From NCBI GenBank assembly GCA_016839815.1, contig JAEOTM010000080.1:1-26327 (forward strand): DNA of 26,327 nucleotides, read 5' to 3'. The notes under the pieces were generated by a model. It searched no databases, was not told where the DNA came from, and saw only the letters and a list, made by a program, of their open reading frames with translations. Below, in pieces: positions 3,591 to 10,387 of this stretch. Source of the stretch: Candidatus Hodarchaeota archaeon (GTDB lineage: Archaea; Asgardarchaeota; Heimdallarchaeia; Hodarchaeales; Hodarchaeaceae). Every line of letters begins with the position of its first letter. Within the stretch, counting starts at the first letter, position 1. A program made the translations under genes and the position numbers.

Positions 3591-4769
3591 ATGGTAGAAC
3601 GTAAGAATTTTTTGTCACATTTGCTCATTATTGGAATTATAACAATTAATCTTGGTATTACCTCAGGAATCTCGTTACATTCTTTGAAATTTCTCGCTTG
3701 GTCAGAATTTGAAGATATCTCAGACCAATTCCATCTCGAACCGAATCTTCAATTACGTAGCTGGGTTGGAGATCTCGACAATGATACTGATTCAGACGTT
3801 CTAATCGGAACAAATCAAGGAAAACTTCAGTTTTTTCGGAATATTGGTTCAAGTGGAAATGATTTGTGGAATATTGATTCAGATTTTTCTCTCCCTATTC
3901 CCTCCAAACAGGTGAGTCGTGTTGTACCTACTGCTGGAGATCTGGATGGAGATAATGATATTGATATTATTATCGGTTGTGATGATGGACATCTCTATGT
4001 TAGTCTGAATGAGGGAACCTCCCAAATCCCTGCATGGACCGAGTTTTCCATTCTTCGTAATTCAAACAACGAAATCTTTAACTTTACAGGTCATGCTAAT
4101 CCGACACTTATTGATTACGATAATGACACTGAAAATTTACTGGATCTAATCGTTGGTTCGGATGTTGATGCAACCACAGGTAGATATCAAATCTATACTT
4201 ACATGAATGTAGGAAATCTAACTCATTATTCATTTGGAGTTGTTACTTATCCTTGGGCTGGTCGAAAATTGCCCTATGGACCCAAAAACATCACTAAAGA
4301 TCTCTTGGAGATTAATCCATCGGAAGATATTACGGGATCTATGAGAGTTAATTTTGCATTGATAAGTATTGATTTACGTCCAGATATGATTTTAATCTTT
4401 GACTCTGGATATTTTTCCTATTTTTATTCCACTGGGCTTACTGCGGATCCAACATTCTTGTCACTAGACAAGGAAGAAGCTTCCTTTGTATTTAATTTTC
4501 CACCAGCTGAGGAAGAATCCTTTATTGATTTTCAATGGTACGGGTCAACTGATACCAATAATATTACTTCTACTATGCCAGTATCTGGGGGTAACCCAAA
4601 AATTCTATTATTTAGAAATTCTGGTGAAGTCTTATTTTTCCCTCAAAGCAGTAATTTCTCCACAGAAAACACCTCTAAAATATCTCCTTCTTGGCTAATT
4701 GGAATGGAAATTTTTACATTTGGATTAATCTCTCTTCTTTTAAAGAAAAGAAAAAAAAGATTTATCTAG
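3591..4769 (+). CDS. Secreted, C-terminally membrane-anchored FG-GAP/VCBS-repeat (integrin-alpha-like beta-propeller) protein
   Basis: N-terminal hydrophobic signal; Ca-binding loops GDLDNDTDSDVLIG, GDLDGDNDIDIIIG and DYDND..LDLIVG, each followed by N-x-G; S/T-rich linker, TM segment and basic tail KKRKKRFI. Confidence 0.8.
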   Translation: MVERKNFLSHLLIIGIITINLGITSGISLHSLKFLAWSEFEDISDQFHLEPNLQLRSWVGDLDNDTDSDVLIGTNQGKLQFFRNIGSSGNDLWNIDSDFSLPIPSKQVSRVVPTAGDLDGDNDIDIIIGCDDGHLYVSLNEGTSQIPAWTEFSILRNSNNEIFNFTGHANPTLIDYDNDTENLLDLIVGSDVDATTGRYQIYTYMNVGNLTHYSFGVVTYPWAGRKLPYGPKNITKDLLEINPSEDITGSMRVNFALISIDLRPDMILIFDSGYFSYFYSTGLTADPTFLSLDKEEASFVFNFPPAEEESFIDFQWYGSTDTNNITSTMPVSGGNPKILLFRNSGEVLFFPQSSNFSTENTSKISPSWLIGMEIFTFGLISLLLKKRKKRFI

Positions 4770-4918
4770 TGAAGAGATTAGACAATTTTAGCTGAATCTA
4801 AAATTCAGAGAGAATTTTGAATTCTAAAAATTCCTATATCAAATAGACTTTAGCTGGGAAAACTATAGATAATCAACAATAATTTTATTCCAGTTGTTGA
4901 AAAGGAGACTTTCCGAAG

Positions 4919-5563
4919 ATGGATTCTGAAGAAATCTATAAAGAAATGGCGGATTCTATTGTAGAGTTAGATCAAGAGAAAGCTTTGAGTCTAGCAAATC
5001 GTGCTCTCGATGAAAATATGGATCTACTAGCAGTGATTGAAAAAGGATTTGGTGAAGGCATTCGTAGAGTTGGAGACTTATGGGATGAAGGTGAATTTTT
5101 TCTTCCAGAATTAATGTCTGGAGCTCAAATCATGCAGAAATCGGTTGATATTATCACACCGAAACTACAATCATCTGGATCTGAACGTCAATCATTGGGT
5201 AAAATCTTGTTAGCAACTATTGAAGGAGATATTCATTCCATTGGTAAAACCATTGTTGCCACTATGTTACGAGCAAATGGATTTCATGTCATCGATATTG
5301 GTACAGATGTAAAAGCTGAAAAAATTGTTGAAGAAGCAATTAAAGAAGATGTCGATATTATAGGAGTTTCGACATTATTAACAACAACGATGATAAATCA
5401 GAAAAAAGTAATTGAAATCCTTGAGAAGAAAAAGGTTCGAGATAAATTTAAAGTAATCTTTGGTGGAGCACCTGTTACACAAGGTTGGGTTGATGAGTGT
5501 AATGCAGATGGTTACGCCGAAAATGCAGTAGAATCAGTAAAGTTAGCTAAGAATCTATTGTAA
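4919..5563 (+). CDS. Corrinoid (cobalamin-binding) methyl-carrier protein, MttC/MtbC/MetH cap plus B12-binding type
   Basis: Cap domain GIRRVGDLWDEGEFFLPEL; B12 motif GDIHSIGK (DxHxxG); STLLTTT; FGGAPVT. Confidence 0.93.
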   Translation: MDSEEIYKEMADSIVELDQEKALSLANRALDENMDLLAVIEKGFGEGIRRVGDLWDEGEFFLPELMSGAQIMQKSVDIITPKLQSSGSERQSLGKILLATIEGDIHSIGKTIVATMLRANGFHVIDIGTDVKAEKIVEEAIKEDVDIIGVSTLLTTTMINQKKVIEILEKKKVRDKFKVIFGGAPVTQGWVDECNADGYAENAVESVKLAKNLL

Positions 5564-5593
5564 AAGCCAAAAAAACATTGACGAAAAAGTGAT

Positions 5594-6484
5594 TTGAAAA
5601 TGTCTTTTACCCAATTGCTAAATGATGACTCAAGGATCATTCTTTTTGATGGTGCAATGGGTACACAATTGATGGAATCTGATTTAGAACCGGGTAAAAT
5701 TCCTGATTTACTTAATATTGAGAATCCAGAGACGGTTCAAAGAGTTTTGAGGAGTTATTTCGATGCTGGTGCAGATATAGTTCAAACATGTACCTTTAGT
5801 TCAAATTATGTAAACTTAGACAAACAGAATTTAGCTCATCTATTATCAAAGCTAAATTTGGAAGCAATTTCTAATATTAAGGCAATTCAACCTTCCAAAG
5901 ATAGGTTGATTGCTGGGGACATAGGCCCCTCGGGTGAATTTCGGCCCCCTGTCGGAAACGCATCAGAAAATCAGTGGAAAACAGGTTTTCGAAAACAAGT
6001 CAAAATTCTAGAACAGGGAGTTGATTTGTGGCATGTTGAGACAATATCAGACCTTCAGGAAATGTCTGCTGCGATTCATGCTATTCGAGAGGTATCTCAG
6101 AAACCGATCATTGCTTCTATGACTTATCGTAAAACAAAAACAAGAGGTTTTTTCACTATTATGGGGGATTCTTTGGAATCCTGTGTCAATCTTTTGGAAG
6201 AGGAAGAAGTCGATGTGGTTGGCACAAATTGCACATTGGGTTCAGATCAGATGGTTACCTTGGCACAAGAGTTGGTGGAATTGAGTGACAAACCCATTTC
6301 TGTCAAACCCAACGCTGGACAACCACGTCTTGCAGGGGGAAGTACTGTTTACGATCAAACTCCTGAAGAATTTGTTAAAGATATTGAACAAATGATTGAT
6401 TTAGGTGTGAAAATTGTTGGTGGGTGTTGTGGTACGACACCTACTCATATCCAAAAACTTCGATCTATGATTAATAATCGCTAG
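5594..6484 (+). CDS. Homocysteine S-methyltransferase domain protein (standalone MetH Hcy-binding module)
   Basis: FDGAMGTQL, AGADIVQTCTF, AGDIGPSG, Zn ligands GTNC and GGCCGTTP, PNAGQP. No fused pterin-binding domain. TTG start. Confidence 0.92.
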   Translation: MKMSFTQLLNDDSRIILFDGAMGTQLMESDLEPGKIPDLLNIENPETVQRVLRSYFDAGADIVQTCTFSSNYVNLDKQNLAHLLSKLNLEAISNIKAIQPSKDRLIAGDIGPSGEFRPPVGNASENQWKTGFRKQVKILEQGVDLWHVETISDLQEMSAAIHAIREVSQKPIIASMTYRKTKTRGFFTIMGDSLESCVNLLEEEEVDVVGTNCTLGSDQMVTLAQELVELSDKPISVKPNAGQPRLAGGSTVYDQTPEEFVKDIEQMIDLGVKIVGGCCGTTPTHIQKLRSMINNR

Positions 6485-6495
6485 GATGTAATTAA

Positions 6496-7920
6496 ATGGG
6501 AATTTTACGACCAAAAGTAGCTTTATTAAACGAGGAATATAAAAGGAAGATTTTTGAGGAAGCCAAGAATATTCTTGAAACCTTAGGGGTTTTAATTGAA
6601 AATAAAAATGCAGAATCCCTTCTCAGAGAGCAGGGGGTTCCTAACAAAGATCAACGGTACTATTTACCCTCAGATCTTGTTGATAAGTGTCTAACTTCCC
6701 CTCCTCATGAAATAACACTATTTGATAGAGAAGGAAAACAGCATCTTTCTCTTGAAGACGATATCATTCATTTTGACCCTGGTTCTGCTGCAATATTCAT
6801 CCTTGATGAGAAATCTGGAGAGATCAGGGAACCTCTTCATGAGGATTTTATTCGGTTTACTAAGATTGTTGACCAATTAACGAATATAGAAGCTCAGAGT
6901 ACTTCTTTAGTATATTCTGATGTTCCTAAGGAAGCTCAGGATTGGCATAGATTATATACAGCTTTGAAGTACAGTCATAAACCAATTGTGACTGGAACGT
7001 TTAAGAAAGAAAGCTTTACGATAATGAATGAACTACTTTTAACCTGCCGCAATTCCGAAAAAGATTTAGCGGCAAAACCCCTTGCAATCTTTGATGCCTG
7101 TCCTTCTCCTCCCTTATCATGGTCGGATTTAACTACACAATCAGTCATCGATGCTGCAGAAAGGATGATTCCCTCTGAATTTATTAGTATGCCCATGTCA
7201 GGAGCAAATGCTCCAATCACATTAATTGGATCCATCACCCAGCACTGTGCTGAATCTCTTGCTGGAGTAGTAATTTCCCAATTAGTAAAAAAAGGAGCTC
7301 CAATAATTTGGGGAGGTTCCCCTGCAGTTATGGATATGAAACATGGAACAACTCCTATGGGGGCTATTGAAACGATGATGATTGACATTGGAGATGCTGA
7401 AATGGGTAAATTCCTAAACCTTCCTACTCATGCTTATATGAGTCTGAGCGATGCAAAGATACCTGACGCTCAAGCTGGATTAGAGGCAGGGATGGGAGCA
7501 TTATTAGCAGGATTAGCAGGAATCAATATGATTTCAGGTCCAGGAATGCTTGATTTTGAATCTTGTCAGTCAATTGAAAAGCTCTTAATCGATAACGAAA
7601 TTGCAGGGATGGTCAAACGTTTTGTAAGAGGGATTAATGATTATGGATCACCATTTGCTAAAGATATTCTACAAGACTATGATGATACTAATGAACTCTT
7701 ATCTCATCCATCAACCCTTCAACTTTTCCGGAAAGAACTTTTCCTACCTAGTCCCATCCTTGCGAGGATGACTCGAGACGAATGGAAAAGTACAGGTTCT
7801 CATTCTTCAAGGCAGAGAGCCAGAATAGAGATAGACAAATTGCTTGCAGCTTCTACCAAAACAGAACTGGATAGTATAAAAGCAAATGAATTGGATAAAC
7901 TTTCCTCTACATATTTATGA
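6496..7920 (+). CDS. MttB-superfamily (trimethylamine/quaternary amine):corrinoid methyltransferase, non-pyrrolysine type
   Basis: SPPL, PMSGANAPITLIGS, AESLAG..ISQL...GAP, MDMKHG, SDAKIPDAQAGLE, GMLDF, EKLLIDNEI. No in-frame amber codon; Leu immediately before SDAK, where methanogen MttB carries Pyl. Confidence 0.9.
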   Translation: MGILRPKVALLNEEYKRKIFEEAKNILETLGVLIENKNAESLLREQGVPNKDQRYYLPSDLVDKCLTSPPHEITLFDREGKQHLSLEDDIIHFDPGSAAIFILDEKSGEIREPLHEDFIRFTKIVDQLTNIEAQSTSLVYSDVPKEAQDWHRLYTALKYSHKPIVTGTFKKESFTIMNELLLTCRNSEKDLAAKPLAIFDACPSPPLSWSDLTTQSVIDAAERMIPSEFISMPMSGANAPITLIGSITQHCAESLAGVVISQLVKKGAPIIWGGSPAVMDMKHGTTPMGAIETMMIDIGDAEMGKFLNLPTHAYMSLSDAKIPDAQAGLEAGMGALLAGLAGINMISGPGMLDFESCQSIEKLLIDNEIAGMVKRFVRGINDYGSPFAKDILQDYDDTNELLSHPSTLQLFRKELFLPSPILARMTRDEWKSTGSHSSRQRARIEIDKLLAASTKTELDSIKANELDKLSSTYL

Positions 7921-7951
7921 TCAATCCAAAAACAAGTAATCGGTTGTAAGT

Positions 7952-8605
7952 TTGATTCAAAGAAGAAATTACGGGAAGATCGCGATTCAGGAAGAAGATG
8001 TACTTAATTATCTTCAATCTAATAAGAAATCATCATCAAAATCTAATGCAAAGGTGTTCTCCTCTGATATCAAAATTCGAATAGGGGAGTTAAAAAACAT
8101 CGCTATCGACCTTTTTCAACCAAAAGGAATTTTCTACATATTTAAACAGAACGAACTTCCATTTCGTGAATGTTTTGCTGAAGCAGAAAGGGTAGCGCTT
8201 GCTATTGTAACTATAGGAGCTTCTTTACCATTTGAGGTGAGTCGATTAATGAATTCAGGGGAGTACGTTGATGGAGTAGTACTAGATGCCTTTGGTTCGG
8301 CTGGAGTAGAACGAGTAGCTGATAAAATGAACGATGAGATCAACGAAGTAGTTAGAAGCCGGAAACTTGATTATTCGAAAAGATTTAGTCCAGGTTACTG
8401 CAGTTGGAGTGTAAAGGATCAGAAGATAATTTTTGATCGCTTACCTGCTGAAGAAATTGGAGTATCATTGTCAGATGGATACATGATGCATCCAATAAAA
8501 TCTGTGTCTTTTGCAATCAATATCGGGAGTCAGATAAAAAAATCAAAATGGGAATCACGATGTAAAACATGTGAAGATCGTGGCCAATGTACATATCGGA
8601 TGTAG
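7952..8605 (+). CDS. Standalone methionine synthase AdoMet-dependent reactivation domain protein
   Basis: IVTIG, LDAFGSAGVE, RFSPGYC, IGVSLSDGYMMHPIKSVS; C-terminal CxxC-x5-C-x-YR. TTG start. Confidence 0.88.
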   Translation: MIQRRNYGKIAIQEEDVLNYLQSNKKSSSKSNAKVFSSDIKIRIGELKNIAIDLFQPKGIFYIFKQNELPFRECFAEAERVALAIVTIGASLPFEVSRLMNSGEYVDGVVLDAFGSAGVERVADKMNDEINEVVRSRKLDYSKRFSPGYCSWSVKDQKIIFDRLPAEEIGVSLSDGYMMHPIKSVSFAINIGSQIKKSKWESRCKTCEDRGQCTYRM

Positions 8606-8773
8606 TAAAAAAGCATTAACCAAGTCCATCGGTACATTTAAAGCTACAACGTCCTCAAGGGTGTTCTAGACCTACTCTAAAGTATAATTATTAATAACGA
8701 TTTATCTTTAAGTTGAAAGAATCAACCGTAATGACCATACTAGATAAGCTTAATTCTTTCCTAGGTGAAATCA

Positions 8774-10387
8774 GTGGATGCTAATGATCCGTTAGAAACT
8801 AGGTGTGATATTTTAATCATTGGGTCGGGGATTGCAGGATTATCGATGGCACTTAAGGTAGCTAACATAGGTAAAGTTATCGTACTGACAAAAACGAGCC
8901 TTAAAGAATGCGCTACCATATTAGCGCAAGCAGGTATAAGTGCAGCATTGTCTACTGATGATTCATTTGAGATTCATTATCAGGATACGCTTAATGTCGG
9001 GGATGGACTCTGTCATCCTGATGTGGTAAAAAAAATTGTATCAGCTGGTCCAGCACGGATTGGAGAACTGGTAAAATGGGGTGTTCAATTTTCCAAGAGT
9101 GATCCAGACCATTATGATTTAGGGCTAGAAGCTGGCCATTCTCACCGTCGAGTTGTTCACTCCAAGGATATAACTGGCGCTGATATTCAAGAAACTTTAA
9201 TAAATCGAATTTTGGAAGACTCTCGAATTACAGTCCTTGAGAATCATATTGCTCTCAATCTAAAGGTTCGCGCAGGTCGATGTCGTGGAGCTTATGTCCT
9301 CGATAAGTACAAAGACATTGTCAAAAATTTCTCCGCAAAAGTTACAGTACTTGCTACAGGAGGTCTAGGTAAAGCGTTCCTTTATACGAGCAATCCTGAT
9401 ATCTCGAGTGGGGACGGAATTGCAATGGCGTACCGTGCTGGAGCTACAATCATGAATATGGAATTTATCCAATTCCATCCTACCTTACTCTATCATCCCC
9501 ATGCAAAGTCTTTTTTAATTTCAGAGGCTTTAAGAGGAGAAGGAGCAAAATTAATTGACGAGGAGGGTACTCGGTTTATGAAGAATTATGACTCGCGAAT
9601 GGAATTAGCTCCTCGTGATGTTGTTGCACGGGCTATAGATTCGGAGCTTAAACGCTCTGGGAATGATTGTCTATTCTTAGATATTTCTTTTAAAGATCCT
9701 GAATTTATTAAGGGTAGATTTCCTGGGATTCATGCAAAATGCTTGGAACTGGGTATGGATATCACTAAAACACCAATTCCAATCGTTCCTGCTGCACATT
9801 ACGCTATTGGAGGAGTAAAAGCTTCTGTTTCAGGCATTACTGATATTCCTGGATTACTTGCCATTGGAGAAACGGCATGTACTGGTTTCCATGGAGCTAA
9901 TCGTCTTGCTTCAAATTCATTACTAGAATCTAGTGTAATGGCACATTTTGCTGCAAGAGAATGTCGAAATCTTATTGAAAAAGGACCTCCAATTTGTACC
10001 TTTTCTCCTTGGCATTCTGGTGATGCTGTTGACAGTGATGAATCAGTTGTTGTTTCCCAGAATTGGATGGAACTTCGGCTTCTCATGTGGAATTACGTCG
10101 GAGTGGTTAGATCCGATAAACGTTTTCGTCGTGCTCAACAAAGAATTCACCTTTTACAGGATGAAATTAACCAATATTATTGGAATTTTCATATTACATC
10201 AGATTTGATTGAACTACGGAATTTAGCCGAAATTGCACAAATGATCATAGATGCAGGCTTTCATCGAAAGGAAAGTCGTGGTGTTCATTATACAATTGAT
10301 TATCCTAAGAAAAGAAAAACAACTAAAGATACTTTACTCCGAAAATCAGTTCGAAGTGAAATTTTAGATTCTTCCAAGTGTGAGTAA
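8774..10387 (+). CDS. nadB: L-aspartate oxidase (NAD biosynthesis)
   Basis: IGSGIAG, AQAGI, EAGHSHRRVVH, QFHPT, LISEALRGEG, ELAPRDVVARAI, PAAHY, GFHGANRLASNSLLE, ESRGVHY. GTG 8774 follows an AGGTGA SD motif; the ORF track start at 8765 is also possible. Confidence 0.93.
   Translation: MDANDPLETRCDILIIGSGIAGLSMALKVANIGKVIVLTKTSLKECATILAQAGISAALSTDDSFEIHYQDTLNVGDGLCHPDVVKKIVSAGPARIGELVKWGVQFSKSDPDHYDLGLEAGHSHRRVVHSKDITGADIQETLINRILEDSRITVLENHIALNLKVRAGRCRGAYVLDKYKDIVKNFSAKVTVLATGGLGKAFLYTSNPDISSGDGIAMAYRAGATIMNMEFIQFHPTLLYHPHAKSFLISEALRGEGAKLIDEEGTRFMKNYDSRMELAPRDVVARAIDSELKRSGNDCLFLDISFKDPEFIKGRFPGIHAKCLELGMDITKTPIPIVPAAHYAIGGVKASVSGITDIPGLLAIGETACTGFHGANRLASNSLLESSVMAHFAARECRNLIEKGPPICTFSPWHSGDAVDSDESVVVSQNWMELRLLMWNYVGVVRSDKRFRRAQQRIHLLQDEINQYYWNFHITSDLIELRNLAEIAQMIIDAGFHRKESRGVHYTIDYPKKRKTTKDTLLRKSVRSEILDSSKCE

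Follow-up and report, generated by a model that had tools for sequence, protein, structure and literature searches.

We describe here a gene cluster in a 26,327-nucleotide stretch of DNA from Candidatus Hodarchaeota archaeon, an Asgard archaeon (assembly GCA_016839815.1, contig JAEOTM010000080.1, positions 1 to 26,327; hereafter, the window). The cluster consists of four genes encoding a corrinoid protein, a stand-alone homocysteine S-methyltransferase (HcyMT), an MttB-family methyltransferase, and a short protein related to the activation domain of the methionine synthase MetH (Table 1). Judging from family assignments, conserved motifs, and gene linkage, we lean toward the interpretation that the four products form a multi-subunit, cobalamin-dependent, pterin-independent methionine synthase, the methyl donor of which is probably not a betaine. 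What we show are the identities of the genes, their catalytic motifs, their linkage, and the lack of competing methionine synthases in the assembly; which way the methyl group flows, that homocysteine accepts it, and what kind of compound donates it are all inferred. The cluster had been singled out in an original prediction made from the DNA letters alone, and its description of four tightly spaced, co-oriented genes with gaps of 30, 11, and 31 nt, its inventory of every MetH module except the pterin-binding one, and its assignment of the methyltransferase to MttB enzymes lacking pyrrolysine (Pyl) were all borne out, the inventory by family matches and motifs and the assignment by a stop-free 474-aa frame with Leu317 at the Pyl position.

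In the mechanism that we propose, the MttB-family protein (methyltransferase 1, MT1) would take a methyl group from a methylated compound and load it onto the corrinoid, in its Co(I) state, of the 214-aa carrier, and the stand-alone zinc enzyme (methyltransferase 2, MT2) would then transfer it from methyl-Co(III) to homocysteine, yielding methionine. Cofactor that has been oxidized to Co(II) would be restored by the activation protein through reductive methylation, which depends on S-adenosylmethionine (AdoMet) and an electron.

Table 1. Positions in the window of the four cassette genes and of the region upstream of them
Feature	Position	Strand	Length	Basis
Corrinoid (B12-binding) carrier protein	4919..5563	+	214 aa	Cap and Rossmann B12 domain, His-on motif
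Stand-alone homocysteine S-methyltransferase (HcyMT)	5594..6484	+	296 aa	PF02574, zinc ligands
Pyl-free MttB-superfamily methyltransferase	6496..7920	+	474 aa	PF06253; CTG at the Pyl-codon position
Short MetH activation-domain protein (AdoMet-binding, reductive reactivation)	7952..8605	+	217 aa	Profile, fold, motif
Upstream intergenic region, AT-rich	4770..4918	+		Shine-Dalgarno-like GGAG at 4904-4907, 11 nt ahead of the ATG; read from sequence

All four genes are single-copy in the assembly. The carrier matched PF02607 (73 bits), PF02310 (101 bits), and TIGR02370 (223.5 bits, the cut-off being 215.3 bits) and has an intact His-on motif DxHxxG (D104-I-H106-S-I-G109); the assembly encodes no other corrinoid protein of the methyltransferase type. 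HcyMT, which starts with TTG and has an ATG two codons downstream, covered the full PF02574 profile (228 bits) and retains its zinc cysteines, namely Cys213 together with Cys278/Cys279 in GGCCG. In NCBIfam, it matched the YitJ and MetH models over their Hcy halves only; the top label, "bifunctional homocysteine S-methyltransferase/MTHFR" (MTHFR, methylenetetrahydrofolate reductase), came from a sub-cut-off match to model positions 1-286 of 611, and the MTHFR domain is absent from the protein.

The MttB-family protein, the only MttB in the genome, matched PF06253 with 254 bits, and its frame contains no in-frame stop. Its PDB matches were the glycine betaine enzyme MtgB (2qne/9yce, 174 bits) and Methanosarcina barkeri MttB (7xcl, 166 bits). 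In the alignment with M. barkeri MttB, Leu317 (CTG, 7444-7446) stands opposite Pyl334, and Ser347 stands opposite Tyr364, the residue that supports Pyl; thus, both features of a Pyl-dependent MttB, the in-frame UAG and the tyrosine, are missing. The Rfam model PYLIS_3 (RF02510) was the sole match in an Rfam search of positions 4400-8900, at 7444-7543 (+) with 40.6 bits against a gathering score of 38 bits, and it begins exactly at the Leu317 CTG. A functional PYLIS element was rejected because the start is CUG rather than UAG, several pairs of the model are disrupted, and folding gave a z-score of -0.59; the match reflects homology of the coding sequence and not an RNA element.

When searched alone, the activation protein reached 24.6 bits against PF02965, which is under the cut-off of 25; most of its homologues carry this domain. 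A 26-sequence family profile matched 1j6r, the stand-alone activation domain TM0269 of Thermotoga maritima, at 6.5e-17 and the activation domains of MetH at approximately 1e-4. In a Foldseek search with an AlphaFold (AF2) model (pLDDT 89, with low confidence at the C-terminus), 1j6r was again the best match (E 9e-13, TM 0.72/0.79) and was followed by the activation domains of Thermus, human, and Escherichia coli MetH. The assignment of the fourth gene is, therefore, secure. TM0269 is its best match in both sequence and structure; it is of similar length, and RxSPGY is common to both, the AdoMet motif RxxxGY being kept in the window as R144-F-S-P-G-Y149. The cassette protein differs from it in four additional cysteines, C150 (in SPGYC), C204, C207, and C213, which are invariant among the 26 archaeal and bacterial homologues and missing from TM0269. 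As a matter of speculation, these residues may form a metal (Zn) or Fe-S site, and, given that RamA was not found, this Cys4 site may perhaps be the point at which the electron enters.

In the assembly, which comprises 4.24 Mb in 206 contigs with 89.5% completeness and 7.8% contamination, the cassette is the only recognizable methionine synthase. The original prediction had proposed looking in the genome for a separate pterin-binding MetH module or for MetE, and neither was found at this level of completeness. The only PF00809 match, the family in which a pterin module of the MetH or MtgD type would be expected, was the dihydropteroate synthase FolP (TIGR01496, 213.6 bits), the gene of which adjoins a CofE-like gene. 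MetE, core-MetE included, was not detected, and the same was the case for MTHFR, MtrH, and a true Mer; the ATP-dependent activase RamA/RACo (PF14574) gave zero matches. S-Adenosylhomocysteine hydrolase, MetK, and one strong Cys/Met pyridoxal phosphate enzyme are present, and, therefore, homocysteine should be available and methionine used.

A comparison with the closest relative (G002), the MttB of which is 87% identical, bears on the absence of MetE. This relative has a block consisting of HTH-CBS, MetE-N, MetE-C, a divergent MTHFR-like gene, and MetK (L120:6995-12377), which is flanked by TrmO-like and periplasmic-binding-protein genes. The same flanking genes are adjacent in the genome of the window, 288 bp apart (contig C182:1888-2176), and MetK is located elsewhere. 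An assembly gap as the cause of the missing MetE/MTHFR block was, therefore, rejected for this syntenic site, which is the one site covered by this result; a copy could sit in the unassembled 10%. Within the genus, split MetE and its own reductase are, thus, acquired or lost together.

Operon conservation, which had also been named as a check, was supported by a linkage survey of 80 loci from other species, the titles of which refer to Loki/Promethearchaeia, Thor, Odin, Hermod, Hod, and Heimdall lineages. The order corrinoid protein, HcyMT, MttB was found in 57 of these 80 loci, and six more have the activation gene as well, an arrangement that is far beyond chance. Among 41 relatives, the MttB orthologue and HcyMT were jointly present or jointly absent in 39, and the two exceptions are fragmented assemblies that are 80% and 75% complete. 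In one related family, the cassette was present in seven of eight genomes and MetE and MTHFR in none of the eight. Across the 41 relatives, the pattern is mosaic, with MetE-like genes in 14 and MTHFR in 16-21. These data are relevant to the proposal that HcyMT acts alone with AdoMet or S-methylmethionine in the manner of MmuM/YagD, its position in the operon being coincidental or regulatory. PF02574 includes B12-independent enzymes, and YitJ-type and BHMT models are among the best NCBIfam matches of this protein; however, HcyMT stays linked to the corrinoid protein and MttB in different Asgard classes and in bacteria even though the gene order is shuffled, its presence follows that of MttB genome by genome, and a B12 reactivation protein is encoded in the same operon. 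We regard this explanation as extremely unlikely.

The distribution of the cassette was also surveyed across 151 evenly sampled Asgard genomes, in which a strong MttB match was defined as E <= 1e-100. Such a match was found in 75 genomes, PF02574 in 37, and the activation protein in 22. Only Heimdallarchaeia families and a single Loki-type family had PF02574; the gene encodes approximately 300 aa in 34 of the 37 genomes, and it mostly lies beside MttB on the same contig. MttB orthologues from Hod, Loki, Thor, Odin, and Hermod lineages share approximately 65-73% identity.

Outside these genomes, more than 150 cluster representatives (clustered at 50% identity) were closer to the query than the characterized enzymes, the 150th scoring 198 bits versus 174 for MtgB and 166 for MttB. 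The neighborhoods of nine representatives were checked. Two of them, at approximately 40% identity, lie on metagenome contigs with a corrinoid protein, HcyMT, and a protein of 226-228 aa, in differing gene orders; the last of these was taken as the activation protein on the basis of size and position only, as it had no Pfam match. One of the contigs (L031) is probably bacterial because an RlmL-type gene is a neighbor. A third representative, at 50% identity, has an activation-domain gene beside MttB on a short contig. Representatives with 36% identity or less, or located outside the clade defined below, were instead accompanied by URO-D-type MT2 genes, by MtmB-like genes, or by a corrinoid protein alone. 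In a quick tree calculated with FastTree, the HcyMT-linked MttBs, that of the window included, fell into one 45-row clade (SH-like support 97), in which Asgard and metagenome members are mixed and to which the cassette-linked metagenome representatives P0242, P0249, and P0258 belong. None of the checked MttB homologues outside this clade had HcyMT neighbors.

A sister Asgard clade of MttB provides a variant of this arrangement. In its members, the corrinoid protein and MttB genes are followed, within approximately 50 bp, by a convergent gene for a 308-aa core-MetE; this was the case in five of the five genomes holding both genes, all from a single genus, and is exemplified by L122:3295-6365 in the closed Asgard genome G074 (PF01717, 120 bits). 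Gene neighborhood, thus, ties MttBs of this kind to methionine synthesis a second time, here through a non-homologous module.

Contigs of metagenome-assembled genomes titled Nanopelagicaceae (L080, with the order corrinoid protein, HcyMT, MttB) and Spirochaetota (L114 and L117) also hold Asgard-type MttBs. These are 52-66% identical and nested in the Asgard clade, which reflects mis-binning or recent transfer.

Regarding the methyl donor, the original prediction had named glycine betaine, carnitine, and proline betaine, and on this point our results disagree with it. The glycine betaine ligands of MtgB are Y97, R312, H348, and F356, and R312 is conserved in every characterized enzyme acting on acidic betaines (PMC13080624). 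In an alignment in which the native numbering of MtgB equals the chain index plus 2, these residues corresponded to S97, H312, S347, and E355, and, thus, none is kept. The replacement extends to the whole cassette clade, with serine in 45/45 members at the first position, histidine or glutamine in 43/45 at the second, serine in 39/45 at the third, and glutamate in 36/45 at the fourth; no member has an arginine at the position of R312, and an acidic glutamate is found where MtgB has F356. Because the ligands are replaced and R312 is gone, acidic betaines are unlikely donors, and the pocket residues suggest that the donor is most likely a compound without a carboxylate, such as a cationic or neutral methylamine. 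The presence of leucine in place of Pyl, as in MtgB, the position of MtgB as the best PDB sequence match, and the coupling of glycine betaine to methionine synthesis in Roseobacters (PMC12478193) are in line with an acidic betaine donor and an enzyme of the MtgB/MtcB/MtpB type. Against this are the altered ligands, the large number of cluster representatives that are nearer to the query than MtgB, and the failure to find a BCCT transporter in the genome, and we, therefore, consider this possibility very unlikely. The same pocket residues occur in neighboring MttB clades that are paired with other acceptor enzymes; for this reason, the donor is probably shared and the acceptor alone differs.

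An EamA-family (DMT) transporter gene lies directly beside the cassette in 28 of the 80 Asgard loci (for example, L043:2211-3164 (-)) and in one bacterial locus (L031:5558-6454 (+)), and is absent from the window. Its product is a candidate importer of the donor, or an exporter. In a separate locus (L127:1-1184), an MttB homologue that shares the pocket residues of the cassette MttB is encoded beside a second corrinoid protein and a fragment of an MtmB-family gene, which suggests that some relatives of this MttB may be part of larger methylamine or quaternary-amine gene sets.

The donor may alternatively be sought inside the cell. The MttB-like subunit would then bind an endogenous methyl carrier, pterin-like or another cofactor, and be a true stand-in for the folate barrel of MetH. 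Both MttB and the folate module of MetH have the TIM-barrel fold and bring a methyl group to B12 (PMC13080624), and the degree of identity among the orthologues is unusually high, as would be expected of a housekeeping enzyme. The betaine ligands are missing, the window contains no linked uptake genes, and reliance of a sole methionine synthase on an external compound would be a risk to the cell. However, we found no MTHFR, true Mer, or MtrH to make a methylated pterin, all characterized enzymes of the MttB superfamily use amines (PMC13080624; PMC12478193), and the EamA transporter beside the Asgard and bacterial cassettes hints at an imported substrate. An endogenous carrier is, in our estimation, decidedly unlikely.

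A further possibility is that the system is catabolic and serves methylotrophy or exploits the product left after demethylation, with MttB stripping methyl groups from an abundant osmolyte of the sediment and the methyl group passing to homocysteine and methionine as one sink or to acceptors resembling MtaA or CmuA. This corresponds to the usual interpretation of MttB-like genes of Asgard archaea as evidence of quaternary-amine methylotrophy (PMC11291895). Two distant MtaA/CmuA-like URO-D proteins are encoded in the genome (L118:1147-2505 (-) and L119:1108-2109 (+)), which reached 150 and 82 bits against the model of methylcobalamin:coenzyme M (CoM) methyltransferase and, thus, remained below its cut-off of 244; one of them has a thioredoxin-like C-terminal fusion and a CobW-family GTPase as a neighbor. 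In addition, MttBs with the same pocket just outside the cassette clade accompany URO-D MT2 genes. On the other hand, HcyMT is the only acceptor enzyme linked to MttB in the window and in more than 60 other loci, and neither MtrH, a pterin methyltransferase, MTHFR, nor Mer was found for one-carbon oxidation or acetyl-CoA synthesis. Because homocysteine is converted to methionine stoichiometrically, methyl groups could be dissimilated by this step only if a large sink lay downstream, and the companion activase is of the AdoMet-dependent MetH type rather than the ATP-dependent RamA. We consider the catabolic reading unlikely.

Several observations weigh against the interpretation of the cassette as a methionine synthase fed by a methylated compound. 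Neither the BCCT transporter mentioned above nor CobS was found in the genome, and no uptake system for methylated amines adjoins the operon. Since the assembly is incomplete and contains some contamination, absences from it are not proof. The cassette was missing in 10 of the 41 relatives, and MetE was also missing in most of these. Split MetE was found in 11 of 21 genomes of the same genus, and, thus, the cassette is not generally indispensable; many relatives have it alongside split MetE. MetH and MetE likewise coexist in E. coli. The activation gene was detected in none of 25 genomes of the Loki-type family (f14), 18 of which have HcyMT, and, because of this patchy occurrence, the conserved core consists of three genes and the four-gene form carried by the window is not universal. 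Two unannotated families of neighboring genes that recur in the Loki-type loci (202 and 238 aa) were tried as hidden activation proteins and rejected, with an hhalign probability of <1%. The two MtaA/CmuA-like proteins could also be extra partners of the single corrinoid protein.

Williams et al. (2022; PMC9324843) described the same four-gene cluster in Ca. Electryoneota and "diverse bacteria" and hypothesized that it provides a new corrinoid-dependent way of making methionine, from a methyl donor that they left unidentified. Their MttB homologue is also placed in an uncharacterized clade apart from MtgB and MttB, and those bacteria additionally encode a full-length MetH, whereas none was found in the Hodarchaeales assembly. 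The metagenome contigs with MttBs at 40-50% identity have the same neighbors as the Williams cassette, and the window has all components of that cassette, namely a non-Pyl MttB that falls into the HcyMT-linked clade, a stand-alone HcyMT, a corrinoid protein, and an activation protein. The cassette of the window is, thus, a clean archaeal example of a published, hypothesized bacterial system and not a new type of system. The novelty claimed by the original prediction is accordingly limited in that the same cassette and hypothesis had been published for bacteria; its statement on Asgard archaea stands to the extent that no description of the cassette in this group was found in the literature searched. 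Its reference to related logic in bacteria is overstated in part, as the MtgBCDE system of Roseobacters still needs a pterin module (PMC12478193).

Compared with the classical MetH of E. coli, Thermus, and humans, the zinc barrel for homocysteine, the cap and B12 domains with DxHxxG, and the activation module with RxxxGY are all common to both. The differences are that these modules are separate proteins in the cassette, that the pterin (methyl-THF; THF, tetrahydrofolate) barrel is missing from the operon and the assembly, with the MttB barrel instead, and that the activation protein is short, resembles TM0269, and has four conserved cysteines in addition. The split MetH and MtgBCDE of Roseobacters are reportedly also the subject of work by Price et al. 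from 2018. A further point of comparison is the finding that, in Phaeobacter inhibens and Ruegeria pomeroyi, one corrinoid protein is common to betaine demethylation and split MetH and that methionine synthesis requires the pterin-binding subunit MtgD (Mausz et al., 2025; PMC12478193). A single corrinoid protein stands between an MttB-family enzyme and a stand-alone HcyMT in both cases, by which the demethylation of amines is connected to the synthesis of methionine. In the Roseobacters, the MttB homologue is a glycine betaine enzyme used for growth, reactivation is performed by RamA/DUF1638, and the genes are scattered, whereas in the archaeon neither MtgD nor a RamA-type activase was found and the operon is tight.

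The MttB of the window shares its superfamily and fold with MtgB of Desulfitobacterium hafniense (2QNE/9YCE) and MttB of M. barkeri (7XCL) at approximately 30% identity, and has a leucine at the Pyl position in common with MtgB, with no amber codon. The partner MT2 differs, being a homocysteine enzyme here in contrast to MtgA, which uses THF, or MtbA, which uses CoM. Core methionine synthases have been proposed to rely on corrinoid proteins in vivo (Price et al., 2021; PMC7857596), and the core-MetE proteins described there (MesA-D) resemble the cassette in making methionine independently of folate. The module that methylates homocysteine is unrelated (the MetE fold versus PF02574), and, as stated above, a core-MetE gene was not found in this assembly.

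The intergenic region upstream of the cassette (Table 1) is the presumed promoter region of the operon, and the Rfam search revealed no B12 or SAM riboswitch there. The gene for L-aspartate oxidase, NadB (8765-10387 (+); NF006567, 708 bits), starts 159 nt 3' of the operon; this position is kept in the three closest relatives (L005-L007), and a functional link is not obvious. A Ras-family GTPase is also encoded in the window, and the names borne by near-identical proteins assign the window to Hodarchaeales within Heimdallarchaeia.

New in the present study are the syntenic absence of MetE and MTHFR, the phyletic pattern in Asgard archaea, and the core-MetE variant of the sister clade, as are the replaced betaine ligands and the Cys4 signature of the activation protein. 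A more far-reaching reading of these data is that the cassette is the main B12-dependent methionine synthase of Hodarchaeales/Heimdallarchaeia and one Loki-type family, and the sole methionine synthase in genomes like that of the window, that it works without folate or methanopterin on a non-betaine donor, be it an endogenous carrier of methyl groups, a simple methylamine, or a quaternary ammonium compound, and that electrons enter at the Cys4 site. Taken as a whole, this reading is possible but doubtful, and we put it forward tentatively. Since the cassette consists of four small soluble proteins, it is testable.

If the proposed function is correct, the cassette would represent a fourth feed for B12-dependent methionine synthesis, in addition to methyl-THF, the methyl-corrinoid of the acetyl-CoA pathway, and the betaine/THF system of Roseobacters, and it would explain how methionine is made by organisms whose genomes encode neither MTHFR nor MetE nor a complete MetH. 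A Heimdallarchaeia protein annotated as a "bifunctional HcyMT/MTHFR" has been proposed to fill a gap in the Wood-Ljungdahl pathway (PMC11193907); if this protein corresponds to the HcyMT gene, that proposal would be without domain support here. The genes annotated as trimethylamine methyltransferases in these Asgard lineages would cease to be evidence of a methylotrophic energy metabolism. The Hodarchaeales/Heimdallarchaeia lineage has been considered a candidate for the nearest archaeal relatives of eukaryotes, and the supply of methionine and AdoMet in these archaea would be tied to cobalamin and a methylated compound of the sediment.

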